From the sequence record MZ892903.1: a stretch of 64,000 nt of DNA; one strand, 5' to 3'. The position numbers were made by a program, and so were the translations under genes. The DNA is from Escherichia phage ELT1. Below the pieces are notes generated by a model, which did no database searches, had not been told where the DNA came from, and was given only the letters and a program-made list of their open reading frames with translations. Below, one piece after another: positions 3,192 to 57,235 of the stretch (position 1 is its first letter; every line of letters starts with the position of its first letter).

Positions 3192-3302
3192 TCAGGGAGT
3201 ATAAAATCCAAATGCAGTTGTTGACCATCCCATCCAATATAGGAAATTTGCACCAATGTAAAACATAAGAATATAAAACCAAATGTTTAGTAAATTCATC
3301 AT
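3192..3302 (-). CDS. small hydrophobic peptide, 36 aa
   Basis: own translation MMNLLNIWFYILMFYIGANFLYWMGW...; one of a run of tiny membrane ORFs. Confidence 0.3.
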   Translation of the reverse strand: MMNLLNIWFYILMFYIGANFLYWMGWSTTAFGFYTP

Positions 3303-3361
3303 TTTACACCATTCCAAATTGTTTCAACTACGGATTTTAAACCATTTTGATGAATATCAAT

Positions 3362-3496
3362 TCAGACAACTGCCATCAAATAGATTCCAACTACAACTGA
3401 ACCCAAGGCGAAAATCAGCATGAAAATGAATAAAGCCGGAAAAATATTATCGAAAAACCATTCAATAAATGTAAAAGCACTGCGTTTACGCTTCAT
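3362..3496 (-). CDS. small hydrophobic peptide, 44 aa
   Basis: own translation MKRKRSAFTFIEWFFDNIFPALFIFMLIFALGSVVVGIYLMAVV. Confidence 0.3.
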   Translation of the reverse strand: MKRKRSAFTFIEWFFDNIFPALFIFMLIFALGSVVVGIYLMAVV

Positions 3497-4144: not shown

Positions 4145-4200
4145 TAAGGTAATAGTACCACAGTCCTTGTGGTATGTAAACCGTTTTGTGAAATTTTTTT
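4145..4200 (-). promoter_or_regulatory. T4-type early promoter
   Basis: GTTTAC (revcomp) 4176-4181, -10 4150-4161, CCACAGTCCTTGTGG palindrome in spacer. Confidence 0.45.
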
Positions 4201-8647: not shown

Positions 8648-8685
8648 TTAATTATACCACATCCTTGTGGTAAAGTAAACTACTG
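8648..8685 (-). promoter_or_regulatory. T4-type early promoter inside 3' end of gene 60
   Basis: GTTTAC (revcomp) 8675-8680, -10 TTATACCAC 8652-8660, CCACATCCTTGTGG palindrome. Confidence 0.45.
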
Positions 8686-9212
8686 GCTCATCCATTCTTT
8701 ACGAAGGTCAGCGTTATCTCCCATGAGCATTTCAAAAAGCTCTTTCCAATTCTCAGGAAGTTTAACAACATCATAAACTGGGTTCTGAATCATTTCACGG
8801 TATTCAGATTTTTCCAAAGAGCCAAGTCCCTTAATATAACGGATGCTATGTTTAGGTAGAGCATCTTTGGCACTCTCATATTCAGCGACTGTATAAAACC
8901 ATTCTTGTTTTTTACCGACCTGAGCGATGATTACAGGAGTTTTGACAAAGCGAATTCTTCCTTGTTCAAACAGTTCTGGCCAATTACTAAAAAATCCGAG
9001 CAGAGAAGGATAAATAGAACCTAATCCAATAATCTCTTAATTATGAGGTATTTCAATGGATAGCCCGAAGGCTATCCATCGTGATCTGCGTCTGTCATAA
9101 TAGCGACATTCGCATAGTTCATTGAAGAGGATTTAATAGAACGACGAACATTGTTCTGCAATTTATATTTTTTCATATCAACGCTAGAAGAATCAATTTT
9201 TACAAATTTCAT
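8680..9212 (-). CDS. 60: topoisomerase II subunit gp60 with 50-nt translational bypass; coding = complement(join(8683..9024,9075..9212)), 160 aa
   Basis: codons 1-46 MKFVKIDSS...IMTDADHDG end GGA then TAG; translation resumes after landing GGA with LGSIYPSLLGFFSNWPELFEQGRIRF...WMSQ. Confidence 0.9.
9025..9077 (-). other. gene 60 bypass element: take-off GGA, UAG stop, stem-loop, 50-nt coding gap, landing GGA
   Basis: minus strand GGA TAG CCTTCGGGCTATCC...ATTATT GGA TTA; 50 nt from after take-off GGA through landing GGA. Confidence 0.9.
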
Positions 9213-10011
9213 TATACACCTCATAGAACTTTTCATCAGGAATCCAACCGCGTTTAAATTCATTAAATGCTCGGCCGAATAATTTTGAATTCACAGTTAT
9301 ATTATTAACTGATTTCCATTTAGCAACTCCCGTTCGTTTATAATGATCGGGGTCATATTTCGTGACGTACCATTCATATAAATTTGGTATTAATTTTACA
9401 GCCTCTGGATTTGTCGCTGATTTATTATACCATGGTTTCGCTTTTTCAAGTTCAGCTGCTTTTGCAGTAGCAGCAACAGTATTTCCAATACCAACTAATT
9501 TTTCAGCTTTAATGCGTGGATCATTAACATGAAGACGAAAAACTTCGCCTTTTTCATTTTTAAAGCATGTCATGCCTTTAATTCCAGGAAGCTTAACACC
9601 TTTATTAACACCGCACCATTCCTTTGGGTTAAATGATCCTTTAATTAATAAGGCGCATTTACCCGATTTAATACTTCTCATTAAAACTTTATCTTTCATA
9701 AAGTTTTTTGACCATTCAGATACTGCTCTTTGATGGTAAATTCTAGCAATTTCATATAATTTACTAGAACGTAAATATTTTTCAGTGTTTAACATTCTAT
9801 TCATCGCATATGCCATTTCACGATTACGATGAATTTTATATAGTAGAAAATGTGCTAAAAAGTGTTCACGAAAAGTCAGTTTCACCAAATTTTCTTTATC
9901 ATCAGAACCTCCCATTGATCTTGGAAGGATATGGTGAATTTCACCCTTAAATTTAGAAACGCGGGTTTTACCCCGCACTATTAAGTCATTATAGATTTTT
10001 TCGTAATTCAC
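9193..10011 (-). CDS. mobA: HNH homing endonuclease (MobA-like), 272 aa, GTG start
   Basis: HHILPRSMGGSDDKENLVKLTFREHFLAHF HNH motif; lies between 39 and 60, overlapping both. Confidence 0.75.
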   Translation of the reverse strand: MNYEKIYNDLIVRGKTRVSKFKGEIHHILPRSMGGSDDKENLVKLTFREHFLAHFLLYKIHRNREMAYAMNRMLNTEKYLRSSKLYEIARIYHQRAVSEWSKNFMKDKVLMRSIKSGKCALLIKGSFNPKEWCGVNKGVKLPGIKGMTCFKNEKGEVFRLHVNDPRIKAEKLVGIGNTVAATAKAAELEKAKPWYNKSATNPEAVKLIPNLYEWYVTKYDPDHYKRTGVAKWKSVNNITVNSKLFGRAFNEFKRGWIPDEKFYEVYNEICKN

Positions 10012-18234: not shown

Positions 18235-18836
18235 TTATAGATTAAATCCTTCAAAATCAAGAGTATAGATAGTGTATGTTGAATACTTTTTATACTCATA
18301 TCTATCCGCAATTCTAAATACACTTCCAGCTGGTATCATTACTTCTTGTTCATCTGAAACTAATTCCATATTACGATAACGATGGCTATCTGGAAACTTA
18401 AAACTCGGACTATATTCTTTACAGCGTAGAGCTTTTATAGCATACTCCTGGAAATTAAACACCATAGGAGCTTTGAATTCAAAAATAACTTGTGTGTTAT
18501 ACTCTAAACCGGAAGCAAAATGTAGAGCTATATTTTTATCATATGAAGCTGATACTACTTTATCAAATGTAATAATATCAATTCCTTGATTTAACACCTG
18601 CTTAGTCTCAGCTGGAACACCTCTCCAAAGAGGTTTATCGTTTGGTTCCAAACGAGATTTGATTATTTCATTTAACCAAGTAGGTCATCTGGTTTATTAG
18701 TAATACAATGAATTAAAAGTTCAATTTCAGATAAATTAAATCCTTCAGAAAGTAATTCTTCACGAATAGAAGCACGCACCGATGCATCCATTGATTTTAT
18801 TTTAAAATCTTTTAGTTGCATTACTGAGTATTTCAT
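18235..18836 (-). pseudogene. modA: modA ADP-ribosyltransferase, split by a -1 frameshift near 18681-18686
   Basis: 5' ORF 18672-18836 MKYSVMQLKDFKIK...NKPDDLLG-stop; 3' ORF 18235-18651 carries ART motifs LWRG, SAS, EQEV; frames join to exactly 200 aa if one base is restored. Confidence 0.55.
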
Positions 18837-19456
18837 TCAACTACCTCAATATCATAAACTTTAAATATTCCAAACGAATCGTGTAATTTTTCTTTTGAAA
18901 TAGAAGTTATTCTATACTTTCCAATTGGAATCATCCATTCTTGTTCACGTACAATCATCATTAAGTTATCAGTACGCTCTGAATCTAGCCCATCAGTATC
19001 TTCATACGTGTACTTGAACTCAGTATTAGGAGAAGAAAGTATAATATCGCTGATATGGTCAGAATAATTAAAAGCTTTATCAGTTTTTAAGCGAAATATT
19101 ATTTCAGTGAAATACTCAACATAAGAAAAACCACATGCTGTGAGTAAACTAGTAGTAAATGAATCTACCCTGTTCGTTGAAAACACTTCTCCAACTTGTA
19201 AATCTTTAATAAGTTCTTCTGTTGATTTTGATATACCACGATATAACTGATATGGTGATTTAGTTAAATGCTTTTTAATGATTTTATTCAATTGCCGATG
19301 AAGAGCTTCATTCTTTTTAGCTTCCATACATTGCCAAAGAACAGACTGCTCAAAGTCAGTAAATTTTTCACAGACTTTTTTATACATATCATATTGAAAA
19401 TCAACGCTTTCAGCTTTTATAGATAACTGTTCAACATCTGCAAGATTAATAATCAT
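18833..19456 (-). CDS. modB: ModB ADP-ribosyltransferase, 207 aa
   Basis: ORF trimmed to MIINLADVEQ...; ART motifs LYRG, STN, EQEW. Confidence 0.7.
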   Translation of the reverse strand: MIINLADVEQLSIKAESVDFQYDMYKKVCEKFTDFEQSVLWQCMEAKKNEALHRQLNKIIKKHLTKSPYQLYRGISKSTEELIKDLQVGEVFSTNRVDSFTTSLLTACGFSYVEYFTEIIFRLKTDKAFNYSDHISDIILSSPNTEFKYTYEDTDGLDSERTDNLMMIVREQEWMIPIGKYRITSISKEKLHDSFGIFKVYDIEVVE

Positions 19457-19523
19457 GATAGCCTCCATATACTTCAGAAGCTATCATATCATCGTTAGAA
19501 AGGAAAGTAAACAACTTTTTGAA

Positions 19524-21014: not shown

Positions 21015-21352
21015 TCACAAGATGTAGATGAACAACTAGAATCACAAGAACTTCCACACGAATCGCCCGTCCATACATGAACAGGAACATTAGTGTCATA
21101 TGAATCAGAACTAGACTGTGTATTCTGTGTATTAGATGATGCAGTAGGTGTTGACCAGCGCCAAGGATTTTTATAATATTCTTGGGCTTCTTCATAAGTC
21201 ATAGTAACTGCTTCTACTGTTCCATCTCCCATATAAACATATTCAACTACAGTTAAAGGAAGGTAGTCGTTTGAAATAGGAACTACACCTTCTCCAGGAG
21301 CTGTAGAGAAAAAATCCGTAAAGAAACTTTTAAACCAATTAAAGATAAACAT
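21011..21352 (-). CDS. hypothetical protein, 113 aa, hydrophobic N-terminus and Cys/Ser-rich tail
   Basis: C-terminus [18 protein letters not shown]. Confidence 0.45.
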
Positions 21353-21557
21353 TACAAAAAGCCTCTCTTAAATTCAACTTGCTTTTCGCCATAATCATAT
21401 CGAATCTCTGCATTAAATTCGACAGAACCATCTGCGTACATCATAAATGAATGCACAACAACTTCTGTAGACCATGGCTGTAGTTCATATTTTTCATTAC
21501 GTGTCGTGAAATGATAATATCTAAATCTTCATTCGGTTTAATCCAACGATTTAACAT
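21352..21557 (-). pseudogene. small gene in two frames (apparent -1 frameshift), ~68 codons if repaired
   Basis: ATG 21555-21557 with GAGGAG RBS gives 38 aa MLNRWIKPNEDLDIIISRH...; overlapping frame continues ...EKYELQPWSTEVVVHSFMMYADGSVEF... with no start. Confidence 0.3.
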
Positions 21558-28400: not shown

Positions 28401-28763
28401 TTAAAAGAATTTAAACTTTTTCTTTGACCTTTTATTGAATGCATCTTGTAGTTGCATTGTAATACATTTTTCTACATGAGGAGCTAACTCAGCTTTTCTT
28501 TCTTGGTCAAGAACAGCAAAGTCCATTACAACCTTTCCATCAACCCAATCTAATTTTGTCACATACACAATGTGTGTAGAACCATCTTCTAGTTTAATGA
28601 CAATCTCCTGGATAACATTTTCCATGGCAGATTTAATTATCTTAAGAGACTCATTAAAAAGACGTTCTTTTCTTTCTTCTTCCCCCTCCGAAGAGGGGGA
28701 TTCATCGATAATTTCTAGATCTAAGTCTAAATCATCTTTATTCATTAAATTCTTCCATATCAC
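28401..28763 (-). CDS. 40: gp40-like head vertex assembly protein, 120 aa
   Basis: length and position between uvsX and 41. Confidence 0.6.
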   Translation of the reverse strand: MIWKNLMNKDDLDLDLEIIDESPSSEGEEERKERLFNESLKIIKSAMENVIQEIVIKLEDGSTHIVYVTKLDWVDGKVVMDFAVLDQERKAELAPHVEKCITMQLQDAFNKRSKKKFKFF

Positions 28764-29385
28764 TTAACTGCTCGAGGTCAGTTTCTAAATCAGCAGCTGA
28801 TTTACTTTTACTTTCTGGAGATTTAAATTTTTCAACCTTTGAGTTAATCAATTCATCAACTTCAGCTTCAACAATTTCATTACTATCAATAGCACCTAAC
28901 TGATAAGCACGTTTAATAGCATCTCGGAATGGTTGATGCTTAAATAAAGGACCCCAGAATGTAGTGCAGTTGGTATCTTTTGCACGCCAAGATTTTTCTT
29001 CGCGAATCATCTCGCCGGTTTCTTCATCAAGAAATTCACGAGCATACCAGCCATTTTTTGGTTTTACTACAAATCCTAATTCTAGAGCCATATCTAACAA
29101 TCCAGAATAAGGATCGATACCACCGTCAAATTTAACATCAATAAAGAATTTACTTTTTTCTTTAACGGTACGAGATTTTTCTACATTTAGAACAAATTGA
29201 TACCCCTGAAGATCAGAACCATCTTTAATCTGACGCTTACCGATAATGAATACAGTATCAGCCGAATACATTACGCCTGTATTGTGTGTAACGATACCAT
29301 TTTCTAAAACATAATGCTCTACGTCAGCAACAGACAAATCATAGACTTCTTTTTTACCAACAGATTTAACAGATTTAATTTTCAT
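28738..29385 (-). CDS. uvsX: UvsX C-terminal piece: 35-aa C-intein fused to ~180-aa UvsX C-extein
   Basis: MKIKSVKSVGKKEVYDLSVADVEHYVLENGIVTHN then TGVMYSADTVFIIGKRQIKDG... (UvsX C-terminal half); own ATG with AAGG RBS. Confidence 0.85.
   Translation of the reverse strand: MKIKSVKSVGKKEVYDLSVADVEHYVLENGIVTHNTGVMYSADTVFIIGKRQIKDGSDLQGYQFVLNVEKSRTVKEKSKFFIDVKFDGGIDPYSGLLDMALELGFVVKPKNGWYAREFLDEETGEMIREEKSWRAKDTNCTTFWGPLFKHQPFRDAIKRAYQLGAIDSNEIVEAEVDELINSKVEKFKSPESKSKSAADLETDLEQLSDMEEFNE
29281..29385 (-). mobile_element. split intein C-fragment, 35 aa
   Basis: intein blocks F/G VYDLSV...H.Y..NGIVTHN followed by +1 Thr. Confidence 0.8.
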
Positions 29386-29417
29386 ACTTTACCTTGTGTT
29401 TCGTAGTAGCTAGTTTC

Positions 29418-29442
29418 AATATACATATTTCATGAAAGCATA
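29418..29442 (-). promoter_or_regulatory. middle-promoter-like element upstream of UvsX C-piece
   Basis: minus strand ATGCTTTCA (MotA-box-like), 12 nt, then TATATT. Confidence 0.35.
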
Positions 29443-29527
29443 ATCTTGATTGTCGCGTTCATTCCAAATTCTTTTACCATATCTTCGAATGTAGTGCGAA
29501 CCCGTAAAGAACTCGCATTGGAATGCC

Positions 29528-30250
29528 TTAACCACGTGCATCTACTGCATAAGCCCATCCTTTTGTGTTAGCTTTAATTTTGTTGATAATTGTGTTAGGA
29601 TTAATTCCCAGCGCTCTTGCAGCAGGTCTGACGCCCCGGTATTCAATACCGTTTATGATAACGCCTTTTTGTCTAGGATGAGAATGCTTTAATCTTTTCT
29701 TTGCTTTTTCTGATATTTCATTAATTGTTTCTTTGGTGTGTTTCTTACCATAGAACCCATTGTTTTCTCCTGTAATACCTTCTGATATGTGCTTACGGTG
29801 TTCATCAGAAGATTTCACGCCTTTTGTGACGCCAACATACACACCAGATTTAACAAGCGGATGGTTTCTTTCAAGACGAATACATTTACCTGTTATATGA
29901 TGCTTGTATGATGCAAAATCAGCATTAGCATATGAATTATGTCCACAAGCATAATCCAAATTAAAATAATCTGGATTTGTTTTAACGTTTACTTGTTTCT
30001 GATAGAAATTTTCGCGCTCTAGCAGTTTAGCATGTTTAATATCATCATATTGCTCCAGTATTTCAACAGTAACATTATTGATAAAATCATGATATCCGGG
30101 ATATCTCGATGAGCCATAGTACTCGCGACCACGGGCGTCAATAATCTTACCGTCTACATAAGAAGCATTTGTCTTGCTTCCTATGTAGTAATACGGCGGA
30201 GTGCCGTTTTTAATTCTATCGTTGAACACAATTTTATAGACAAAATTCAT
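29528..30250 (-). CDS. free-standing GIY-YIG homing endonuclease (Seg-like), 240 aa
   Basis: N-terminal FVYKIVF...YYYIGSK, NUMOD-like NGFYGKKHT, C-terminal helix-turn-helix-like tail; sits between the two uvsX pieces. Confidence 0.7.
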   Translation of the reverse strand: MNFVYKIVFNDRIKNGTPPYYYIGSKTNASYVDGKIIDARGREYYGSSRYPGYHDFINNVTVEILEQYDDIKHAKLLERENFYQKQVNVKTNPDYFNLDYACGHNSYANADFASYKHHITGKCIRLERNHPLVKSGVYVGVTKGVKSSDEHRKHISEGITGENNGFYGKKHTKETINEISEKAKKRLKHSHPRQKGVIINGIEYRGVRPAARALGINPNTIINKIKANTKGWAYAVDARG

Positions 30251-30253
30251 ATG

Positions 30254-30286
30254 GGTACCTCAAAAATATACATTAGTCCGGTACCC
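30254..30286 (-). promoter_or_regulatory. hairpin sequestering the RBS of the endonuclease gene
   Basis: inverted repeat GGGTACC (30254-30260) / GGTACCC (30280-30286); 3' arm covers GAGG just upstream of ATG 30248-30250. Confidence 0.45.
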
Positions 30287-30293
30287 ATATTTA

Positions 30294-31223
30294 TTACCTT
30301 ACAACACAATCCATTCCAGCTACTAAATCTTTAGCTTCAACCCAAGTTGGAATGTCTTTAACCATTACCAGGAACTTGTGGGTATCTGAAGTAGTTACTT
30401 TATAACCGTCTTCGAATTCAATTTCGAAACATTCAGGAGTACCTTCAGCCAGAGTTTCTGGGTCCCAAACATAAGTTACTTCATTATCACCGACCATGGT
30501 TTTAACACGTTCACCTGGACGAATATCTTCAACTGCTTTAGTAGAACCATCGGACATCTGGATTTTAGTACCAGCAATAACACAACCACCTGTCATCACG
30601 GTTTTACTAAACAGTTCAATTGTTTCAATTGTATGGTTAACCGCAACACACGGAATGTTTTTAATACTAAAATAAGGAGTAACAATACGGAATAATGACT
30701 TCAGTGATTTAGCACGAGTCATATCTGCCACAGATTTTTCATTCAAGGCATCTTCCGTTTCTTTCTTAGAAGCCATATTACCAATTGAGTCAATGAATAC
30801 AATAACTTTTTCACCACGCTCAATAGCTTCAAGCTGATTCACCATATCAATTTTCAGCTGTTCAACTGACTGAATTGGTGTATGAATTACTCGTTCCGGG
30901 TCAACTCCCATGGATCGCAAATAAGCTGGAGTAATACCAAATTCGCTATCATAGAATAGACAAACCGCGTCAGGATATTTGTTCAAATACGCCGCAACCA
31001 TAGTCAAAGACATATTTGATTTAAAGTGTTTAGAAGGACCTGCAAAAATGGTTAAACCAGACTGCATACCACCATCAATCGCACCAGAAATAGCGATATT
31101 AAGCATTGGGATTTTTGTACGGATTACATCCTTTTCATTAAAGAATTTAGATGTAGTCAGTTCAGCAGTCATTTTAGAAGTGGAAGCTTTAATTAAACGG
31201 GATTTTAAATCTGCAATAGACAT
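30294..31223 (-). CDS. uvsX: UvsX N-terminal piece: ~213-aa N-extein fused to 96-aa N-intein
   Basis: MSIADLKSRLIKAS..., Walker A GPSKHFKS, ...KTVMTGG then CVIAGTKIQ...TTSDTHKF...MDCVVR-stop. Confidence 0.85.
   Translation of the reverse strand: MSIADLKSRLIKASTSKMTAELTTSKFFNEKDVIRTKIPMLNIAISGAIDGGMQSGLTIFAGPSKHFKSNMSLTMVAAYLNKYPDAVCLFYDSEFGITPAYLRSMGVDPERVIHTPIQSVEQLKIDMVNQLEAIERGEKVIVFIDSIGNMASKKETEDALNEKSVADMTRAKSLKSLFRIVTPYFSIKNIPCVAVNHTIETIELFSKTVMTGGCVIAGTKIQMSDGSTKAVEDIRPGERVKTMVGDNEVTYVWDPETLAEGTPECFEIEFEDGYKVTTSDTHKFLVMVKDIPTWVEAKDLVAGMDCVVR
30297..30584 (-). mobile_element. split intein N-fragment, 96 aa
   Basis: intein block A CVIAGTKI and block B TTSDTHKFLV; ends at in-frame TAA. 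Confidence 0.8.
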
Positions 31224-42543: not shown

Positions 42544-42803
42544 AAAAGATTCCTTTTAATGTATCTTTTAGACCATTCTATCATATCATCATAATCTAAA
42601 AAGTATTCATCAAATTCAGCCATGCAAACAACACCTTGTGCTGTTTTTGATGTAATATAAATTATTCCAACATATCTAGAATCTTCTTCGATATAATCAA
42701 TATTTGCTATGAATTCATCATTAATGTCAAATGTCGAAAACTTCACAGTATGCATCCTTAATACAAGATACAGCCATATCTTGTAATGATTTAGGTGTGT
42801 CAT
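42540..42803 (-). CDS. hypothetical protein, 87 aa
   Basis: ORF track; begins inside another frame of the upstream region. Confidence 0.45.
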   Translation of the reverse strand: MTHLNHYKIWLYLVLRMHTVKFSTFDINDEFIANIDYIEEDSRYVGIIYITSKTAQGVVCMAEFDEYFLDYDDMIEWSKRYIKRNLL

Positions 42804-42989
42804 TATCTAAAATGTTGAAGTTAAAAGATACAGCCCAGTCAGTGCAGACTGTGACCTTTTTAATACAATTATCTTCAACCTCTAGTGGTTCAAACCAGTA
42901 TTCAATAATTTCTTTATGCCCATATCATCTTTTACTTCACATTCAAAATGCTGACTCATCATAACATTTTTAAATTCATCAAAAGTCAT
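42721..42989 (-). pseudogene. small gene between 47 and 46 read in successive frames (apparent frameshifts)
   Basis: ATG 42987-42989 gives 35 aa MTFDEFKNVMMSQHFECEVKDDMG...; -1 frame continues HKEIIEYWFEPLEVEDNCIKK...AYCEVFDI with no start; GACATTTGACATT direct repeat at the next frame change. Confidence 0.3.
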
Positions 42990-56007: not shown

Positions 56008-56308
56008 TTTCTTCTCGGTCAAATCGGTGTTTACAATGACGACATTTATAACGAAGATTACTAGTCTGCCAATGGACCAATTGCACCTGTTCAGTTCCAC
56101 ATTCAGGGCAATTAGGAACGTTTTTAGAAGCCCTTTCACGACGTTCAACCATAACCATTACAGAATCCCAATTAACAGGAGGGCTATAATCATCACAACC
56201 ATGAATCTTTCCACGCATTTCCAGATCGTCTTCTTCACCAGCCATAATAATTTTAATTAGACTAGAATTACTTGAAGCTGCAATGTCTTCTAATAGACGC
56301 TTTTTCAT
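55994..56308 (-). CDS. zinc-ribbon protein, 104 aa
   Basis: CPECG...CRHC. Confidence 0.45.
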
Positions 56309-56655
56309 TTCAATACCTCAATAGCATTGCGTAAACCATTTGCTTTTGCATTAAGAGCTTTTAACAATTTGGTGTGTTCTGCAATTTGGGCTTCAACTTC
56401 AATCAAACGAGCATTGAGATATTCGCGTTCTTCACTCAGATTATCAGCCTTTTCTGCTTTAGGTTCTTTTACAACTTGCTTATATGTATTAGGGTTCTTC
56501 AGTTTAATTAGAATGCGTGAACTGTACAGCATTGAACCATTATCTTCGGTTTCGTCATACATTTCCACTACGTCCATCATCTCCACCATCGTGCAGAGTT
56601 TATAAGACAACGAACGAATAATTTTGTTGTGCTTATTAATTTCTCTAGCTGTCAT
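56305..56655 (-). CDS. hypothetical protein, 116 aa
   Basis: ORF track. Confidence 0.45.
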   Translation of the reverse strand: MTAREINKHNKIIRSLSYKLCTMVEMMDVVEMYDETEDNGSMLYSSRILIKLKNPNTYKQVVKEPKAEKADNLSEEREYLNARLIEVEAQIAEHTKLLKALNAKANGLRNAIEVLK

Positions 56656-56695
56656 GGTGCCGAGATTACGTGAGTAATAATAAGGAACCTGGATA

Positions 56696-57235
56696 TTAAT
56701 TAATTAATACTGATGAACCACCTGGCTTGTGTGTTACTTCATCAGCAATAACCCAATCCTTAACATGAACTGTATTTGTACGGTCATCGCCCGCGGTAAA
56801 TAGTTTACGAGCATGCTTAAAAAGCATATTCACTTGGTCATTGAATTGACAAGCGAATTTATCAGCAAATTTAGTTTCGGGAATGGTAGATAACCAATCA
56901 GCCAAATGGGTCTTTTTAACATCGTTAACAATAGTAAATTCAACCAAATCGGTTATAGATGTCGCAGTTTTAATGAATCTCGGCTTCATAAAGTTTTTAA
57001 TGTTATCGCGAGCTACAGTAGAAGATAACATACGAGAACGTTTAAACCATTCAAGTAAATTGCCTAACGAATGAGAATAAGCGTTCTGAGTATCTTTACA
57101 GATATGATTTTCCTGGCCAACATACTGAAGGAAATCACGAAGAATATTATTGATTACTGCTCTGTGTCCTATCTGATAATCACGATGTTTAGTAATAAGA
57201 CTGTCAAAATAATCAATATAATGTTTACGAGTCAT
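56696..57235 (-). CDS. hypothetical protein, ~179 aa
   Basis: ORF 56696-57265 trimmed to MTRKHYIDYF... Confidence 0.45.
   Translation of the reverse strand: MTRKHYIDYFDSLITKHRDYQIGHRAVINNILRDFLQYVGQENHICKDTQNAYSHSLGNLLEWFKRSRMLSSTVARDNIKNFMKPRFIKTATSITDLVEFTIVNDVKKTHLADWLSTIPETKFADKFACQFNDQVNMLFKHARKLFTAGDDRTNTVHVKDWVIADEVTHKPGGSSVLIN

Follow-up and report, generated by a model that had tools for sequence, protein, structure and literature searches.

The DNA analysed here, called the window throughout, is a 64-kb stretch of the genome of Escherichia phage ELT1 (MZ892903.1), a T4-like, unclassified Tequatrovirus whose nearest relatives in the phage collection are 96-98% identical to it. The modA gene occupies positions 18235-18836 on the minus strand, within a block of early genes that all lie on this strand, and the order modA.3, modA.2, modB, modA, srd, dda.1, dda is that of phages T4, HY03, JEP6 and U115. 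The plus strand at the locus carries only short ORFs of at most 52 aa, without support. The features of the locus are listed below in window coordinates; the two promoter-like sites are consensus matches only.

19483-19511, minus strand: sigma-70-like promoter match preceding modB, TTTACT-17-TATGAT plus an extended TG
18833-19456, minus strand: modB, an intact 207-codon paralogous ADP-ribosyltransferase gene, product 94.7% identical to T4 ModB over residues 1-207
18672-18836, minus strand: modA 5' fragment encoding a 54-aa product, from the ORF and comparison with T4; deposited as UAW07317.1
18682-18683, minus strand: bases flanking the lesion, the missing A of His52 (GACC|TACT), from alignments
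18235-18681, minus strand, -1 frame: modA 3' part, codons 53-200 (T53 to L200) plus stop, 148 codons
18148-18176, minus strand: sigma-70-like promoter match between modA and srd, which are 125 nt apart, TTTACA-17-TATAGT plus TG

In contrast to modA, modB is intact in the window. The initial annotation had described modB as intact and downstream of modA; the first part holds, whereas modB is transcriptionally upstream and lies downstream in window coordinates only. Its frame is open as far as an in-frame ATG at 19468, a GGAGG Shine-Dalgarno sequence stands before the ATG at 19456, and its TGA overlaps the modA ATG (ATGA, 18836-18833), which is a classic layout for translational coupling. ModB of T4 (NP_049636.1) is a paralogous ADP-ribosyltransferase and RNAylation enzyme of the same PHROG 832/PF26816 family as ModA, with a ModB-ModA cross-match of 28-29% identity; its targets, ribosomal protein S1 and others, differ from those of ModA (PMC10468400). 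Judged by its match to consensus, the site at 19483-19511 is likely the early promoter of the modB-modA pair. The srd gene is probably independent of read-through from modA because a promoter-like site precedes it. A 14-bp hairpin (TATGATAGCTTC...GGAGGCTATCATG; 19454-19488, minus strand) encloses the modB Shine-Dalgarno sequence and ATG and overlaps the -10 element of the upstream promoter-like site; it could mask the ribosome-binding site of modB.

The modA reading frame and its single-base deletion

T4 ModA (NP_049635.1, UniProt P39421) is an arginine-specific mono-ADP-ribosyltransferase of the R-S-EXE type, a motif defined for this enzyme (PMC10468400), and it ADP-ribosylates Arg265 on both alpha subunits of RNA polymerase (PMC2988021). 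When the ELT1 locus was compared with T4 ModA by tblastn, residues 1-51 were 100% identical and residues 53-200 were 96.6% identical. PHROG 832, 'RNA polymerase ADP-ribosylase', was matched by the C-terminal fragment (E = 1.6e-25) and by the protein with its reading frame repaired (E = 1.4e-33), as well as by ModB, and ModA homologues in a large protein collection are tagged PF26816 (Mod_ADP_RT); no ModA match came from local searches of Pfam, NCBIfam and the PDB sequences. Homology, the R-S-EXE motif and synteny all identify the ELT1 locus as modA. It resembles T4 in its modB-modA-srd arrangement, in the ATGA overlap with modB, in its R72 and E163-x-E165 residues and in its length of 200 codons once repaired. 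Unlike T4 ModA, the ELT1 copy is one base short in codon 52, and its native start yields only residues 1-51 of the protein.

The initial annotation had proposed that a single-base frameshift within 18660-18700 interrupts modA and had called for an alignment to T4 modA. This alignment showed ELT1 to be exactly one base short, in the His52 codon: the A is absent, so that GAC CAT ACT becomes GACC-TACT. Alignment with T4 and U115 places the gap between window positions 18683 and 18682, and HY03 and JEP6 agree, which supports the central reading of the initial annotation. The ELT1 junction reads GACCTACT; unlike ELT1, U115 keeps the A (GACCATACT) and its modA ORF is uninterrupted. The missing A is a lone base with C on one side and T on the other, and therefore lies outside any homopolymer. 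A homopolymer sequencing error, which the initial annotation had offered as one possible cause, was rejected for this reason.

The consequences for the reading frame were also as the initial annotation had described them, with a 54-codon ORF ending in NKPDDLLG followed by an ADP-ribosyltransferase ORF in the -1 frame. The first product (MKYSVMQLKDFKIK...NKPDDLLG-stop) matches T4 ModA fully over codons 1-51, continues out of frame through Leu-Leu-Gly to a TAA and contains none of the catalytic residues. The active-site codons R72, S109 and E163-x-E165 all sit downstream of the frameshift, and the 3' part keeps R72 (LWRG/PLWRG), SAS at 95-97, S109 and E163-Q-E165 (EQEV) unchanged, including the three motifs that had been named for this ORF (LWRG, SAS and EQEV). 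Its stop codon lies at 18237-18235, and at its other end a TGA at 18687-18685, two codons ahead of T53, closes the -1 frame. The 3' part has no ATG ahead of codon 125 and its earliest canonical start is the TTG at 18651; neither the TTG nor any later in-frame start is preceded by a Shine-Dalgarno sequence. Putting the A back restores a protein of exactly 200 aa, the length of T4 ModA and the length predicted in the initial annotation, with 100% amino-acid identity to U115 ModA (UAV88982.1) and 195 of 200 residues identical to T4 ModA (5 differ); at the nucleotide level the 661-nt locus is 98.5% identical to that of U115. The depositors named both halves 'NAD--protein ADP-ribosyltransferase [Escherichia phage ELT1]', the C-terminal half being deposited as UAW07316.1, a protein of 138 aa begun at the TTG at 18651. 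An intact ORF of about 200 codons from the modB-coupled ATG is not present, the frame stopping after 54 codons, and the ELT1 locus is a disrupted modA allele rather than a functional family member, to be filed as a pseudogene or null allele.

We considered whether a functional enzyme might nevertheless arise from the split gene, either by recoding (-1 frameshifting, transcriptional slippage or bypassing of the gene 60 type) or by a restart of translation at the TTG. Translational bypassing is an established feature of gene 60 in T4-like phages, and this gene is itself in the window at 8680-9212; the TTG stands 21 nt past the premature stop; and a GGT-TAA take-off site is matched by a GGT that could serve for landing in frame, 53 nt further on. 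However, the 15-nt window in which the two frames overlap (GAC CTA CTT GGT TAA) has neither an X XXY YYZ heptamer nor a run, and the GGT-to-GGT hop, the only matched pair, would drop residues 52-73 including the catalytic R72. Reinitiation would have to proceed without a Shine-Dalgarno sequence, and the TTG product would lack the first 62 residues. The split layout is moreover absent from the roughly 500 relatives, which all carry a plain ORF. With no slippery site, R72 lost in the hop, no Shine-Dalgarno sequence and no conservation, recoding and reinitiation were rejected as extremely improbable routes to active enzyme. Translation from the modB-coupled ATG stops after 54 residues with every catalytic residue absent, and the remaining 148 codons are stranded in the -1 frame behind the TGA, served by neither an ATG, a Shine-Dalgarno sequence nor a slippery site. 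We infer that this sequence yields no active ModA.

modA alleles in other T4-like phages

A megablast search with the modA locus against 50,697 phage records returned 501 Tequatrovirus and related records, and in the best matches 662 record bases aligned to the 661-base ELT1 query. The privacy of the deletion was assessed with junction-centred queries of 43-44 nt, on which the 28-nt exact word of megablast cannot seed when the record is wild type; inspecting just the leading rows of a megablast with a 101-nt query is an unsafe test of whether an allele is private. The ELT1 modA junction (44-nt query) was found in 0 of the approximately 500 relatives, and a positive-control 44-mer from undisturbed modA sequence 40 nt away was found in 499 records. 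A 26-mer spanning the junction had no exact match in IMG/VR, a collection with few T4-like contigs in which the wild-type 27-mer occurred once. The modA deletion of ELT1 is therefore seen in ELT1 only.

A search with the repaired protein gave a main cluster of 200-aa proteins with 446 members and a truncated cluster with 40 members, one of which is the exact 54-aa ELT1 product, seen on a single contig of 170,727 bp. Disrupted alleles identified in other T4-like genomes and contigs, for the most part long phage contigs, were the following.

P0013 (locus L011, 1501-2104): +1 frameshift 15 nt past the ELT1 site, AAA to AAAA
P0014, with P0005 and P0004 (locus L012, 1501-2108): 5-bp AGTAT tandem duplication, on 8 contigs
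P0002: 157 aa, stop after codon 157 (RYRNM), the longest contig being 166,610 bp
P0017: 53 aa with T53 as the last residue, at the protein level only, the longest contig being 26 kb
P0008: 33-aa internal duplication, in phage vB_EcoM-UFV10

The P0013 allele is carried by 8 contigs, 6 of them of 50-200 kb, and its locus was read from a 21-kb contig (Logan ERR2597371). Contigs with the AGTAT duplication include one of 164,905 bp from a human gut metagenome (ERR321586). The figure of 8 given for each of these two alleles is a count of contigs, which may not be independent of one another. In both loci examined at the DNA level (L011 and L012), modB is intact beside the modA lesion. As in ELT1, the reading frame is lost or an early stop is introduced, and each lesion is different and independent. 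Several distinct lesions in one 603-bp gene, set against 446 distinct intact sequences, fit a dispensable gene that is occasionally lost. That the loss is recurrently selected in T4-like phages, being neither drift nor error, is in our view quite unlikely.

Other disruptions in the window

We compared every annotated T4, HY03 and JEP6 protein of the syntenic region with the window and examined short indels at the nucleotide level. Every large or essential gene is intact, among them rIIA, rIIB, 39, 52, dda, 61, 41, 43 and 44 as well as 62, 45, 46, 47, 55, 49 and the nrdD exons. Frameshifts private to ELT1 were found in modA and in three small accessory genes, mrh.2, 46.2 and nrdC.3.

About 21352-21557, minus strand: mrh.2 (68 codons), A6 shortened to A5 (gene strand), in the plus-strand T-run at 21490-21494
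About 42730-42989, minus strand: gene 46.2 (87 codons), 1-nt deletion ATATTGG to ATA-TGG in a TT pair, at 42922
About 56305-57235, minus strand: nrdC.3 (309 codons), 4-bp tandem duplication (ATTA)2 to (ATTA)3, at 56695-56706

The mrh.2 product is reduced to 38 aa (deposited as ELT1_46, UAW07326.1) and that of gene 46.2 to 35 aa (ELT1_79, UAW07359.1), and neither junction was found in the phage records by the junction test. The 179-aa N-terminal product of nrdC.3, deposited as 'thioredoxin' (UAW07393.1), is ELT1-only in a cluster of 630 members, and apart from the duplication the sequence is identical to the best match among 401 phage records.

This set of lesions bears on whether the deposited sequence is faithful. 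If the missing A reflects an artefact of sequencing, assembly or polishing, modA would be intact in the phage and the A absent from the deposited consensus only. Three of the four private lesions are 1-nt deletions (modA, mrh.2 in A6 and 46.2 in TT), a bias that is a signature of deletion-biased platforms or of incomplete polishing, and the heavy modification of T4-type DNA can upset certain sequencing chemistries and platforms. None of the three deletions is shared by the 380-500 relatives compared, and all four lesions are unique among hundreds of relatives and free of secondary decay, as errors would be; the repaired ModA is 100% identical to a functional allele. ELT1 also modestly exceeds T4, HY03 and JEP6 in private disruptions. 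Annotated genes of the same region are privately disrupted 3 times in T4, once in HY03, 0 times in JEP6 and 4 times in ELT1, a count that includes nrdC.3, which is comparable with JEP6 only. This baseline was restricted to annotated genes, an all-ORF version being noisy from spurious alternative-frame ORFs. Scaled from the references (4 disruptions per 651 private synonymous changes) to the 189 private synonymous changes of ELT1, about 1.2 disruptions are expected against the 4 observed (Poisson P about 0.03).

Against an artefact, the remainder of the window looks natural. In the 58 genes that all four genomes carry intact, the private codon changes of ELT1 comprise 189 synonymous and 35 nonsynonymous, or 16% nonsynonymous, compared with 13-20% for T4, HY03 and JEP6 and about 75% expected from random errors. 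Of 75 homopolymer runs at least 6 bases long, only the mrh.2 run differs privately in length, a number above zero but too small to mark the platform as error-prone, and the modA site lies outside such runs altogether. Because so few runs are altered and private substitutions are 16% nonsynonymous, the assembly does not appear generally error-prone. Private short indels number four in the 57 kb covered by at least 2 references, one of them natural and common to pSe_SNUABM_01, and none was found in essential genes or intergenic DNA. The nrdC.3 lesion, as a 4-bp tandem duplication, also argues against a base-calling origin, and the independent modA frameshifts that recur in multiple other assemblies indicate that real modA nulls exist.

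Several further differences were rejected as private to ELT1. A stop (GGA to TGA) in a gene resembling ndd.2a is a natural allele, phage T2 having the same stop; breaks relative to T4 in a-gt.2, 55.1, 55.3, pin and 39.1 are alleles common to JEP6 or T4; and a T-run variant in denB (about 4194-4200) has a 100% match in pSe_SNUABM_01. The ndd.2a-like gene has 65 codons (3302-3496, minus strand), and the TGA at about 3362-3364 leaves a 44-aa product; in T4 the corresponding gene has a 1-nt deletion near its start that gives the separate ORFs ndd.3 and ndd.2a.

Three other loci of the window are recorded here as observations in their own right. The uvsX region (28738-31223, minus strand) is split into two ORFs, an N-terminal one of 309 aa (30294-31223, about 77% identical to T4) and a C-terminal one of 215 aa (28738-29385, 99% identical), with a 240-aa homing-endonuclease-like ORF (29528-30250) between them; HY03 is annotated alike. 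Gene 60 (8680-9212, minus strand), including the region of the 50-nt bypass gap of T4, aligns ungapped at 97.9% T4 identity, and its bypass-gap sequence is not identical to that of T4. Between genes 39 and 60 lies an intact 240-aa ORF for a mobA-type HNH endonuclease (about 9190-9915, minus strand), in a layout shared with HY03 and JEP6; T4 has a defective remnant with 4 stops in the alignment.

Origin and meaning of the modA deletion

Pseudogenisation and sequencing error, the alternatives raised in the initial annotation, both remain live once error of the homopolymer type is set aside. Our best reading, held with moderate confidence, is a genuine and recent modA null allele in the sequenced phage stock. 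It accords with a modA site that is no homopolymer, with the other modA lesions in T4-like contigs, with the three private disruptions that T4 itself has in this region and with the nrdC.3 duplication, a classical type of mutation that is untypical of base-calling error. The lesions also spare the large or essential genes, which is weak evidence for genuine mutation; four random events would all spare essential genes with a probability of roughly P = 0.3 if about 17 kb are essential. An artefact in the deposited consensus is a close rival, a serious possibility that we rank behind the genuine null allele.

If the allele is genuine, ELT1 would be a modA-null phage that keeps ModB and presumably also carries Alt, which is injected and is encoded outside the window. 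T4 can grow without ModA and the enzyme harms E. coli, so that such a null would be tolerated: producing ModA is highly toxic to the host and early-transcription shut-off is unchanged by deletion of modA (PMC2988021), and the substitution E165A abolishes ModA activity, T4 with modA E165A having been recovered as plaques (PMC11404850). Since the rest of the protein is the same as the functional U115 allele, the lesion would be evolutionarily very recent.

This is known biology, an ordinary loss-of-function allele (or perhaps a sequencing error) of a well-characterised gene with no new mechanism, and dispensable early genes of T4 commonly have null alleles, T4 itself having a defective mobA and a frameshifted ndd.2a/ndd.3. 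The importance of the finding is small and lies mainly in annotation hygiene. A real deletion would call for merging UAW07317.1 and UAW07316.1 into a single pseudogene; an artefact would mean correcting the ELT1 record here and probably at three further sites. Were the loss selected, improbable as we consider this, hosts or conditions would make ModA counter-productive, through its toxicity, through redundancy with Alt or through a defence that senses ADP-ribosylation of the alpha subunit, and ELT1 would be a natural modA knockout useful for probing the role of ModA. The independent disruption of modA in several T4-like genomes agrees with the experimental dispensability of ModA, and its recurrence could inform a systematic survey of the host-takeover genes that phages in nature can do without.
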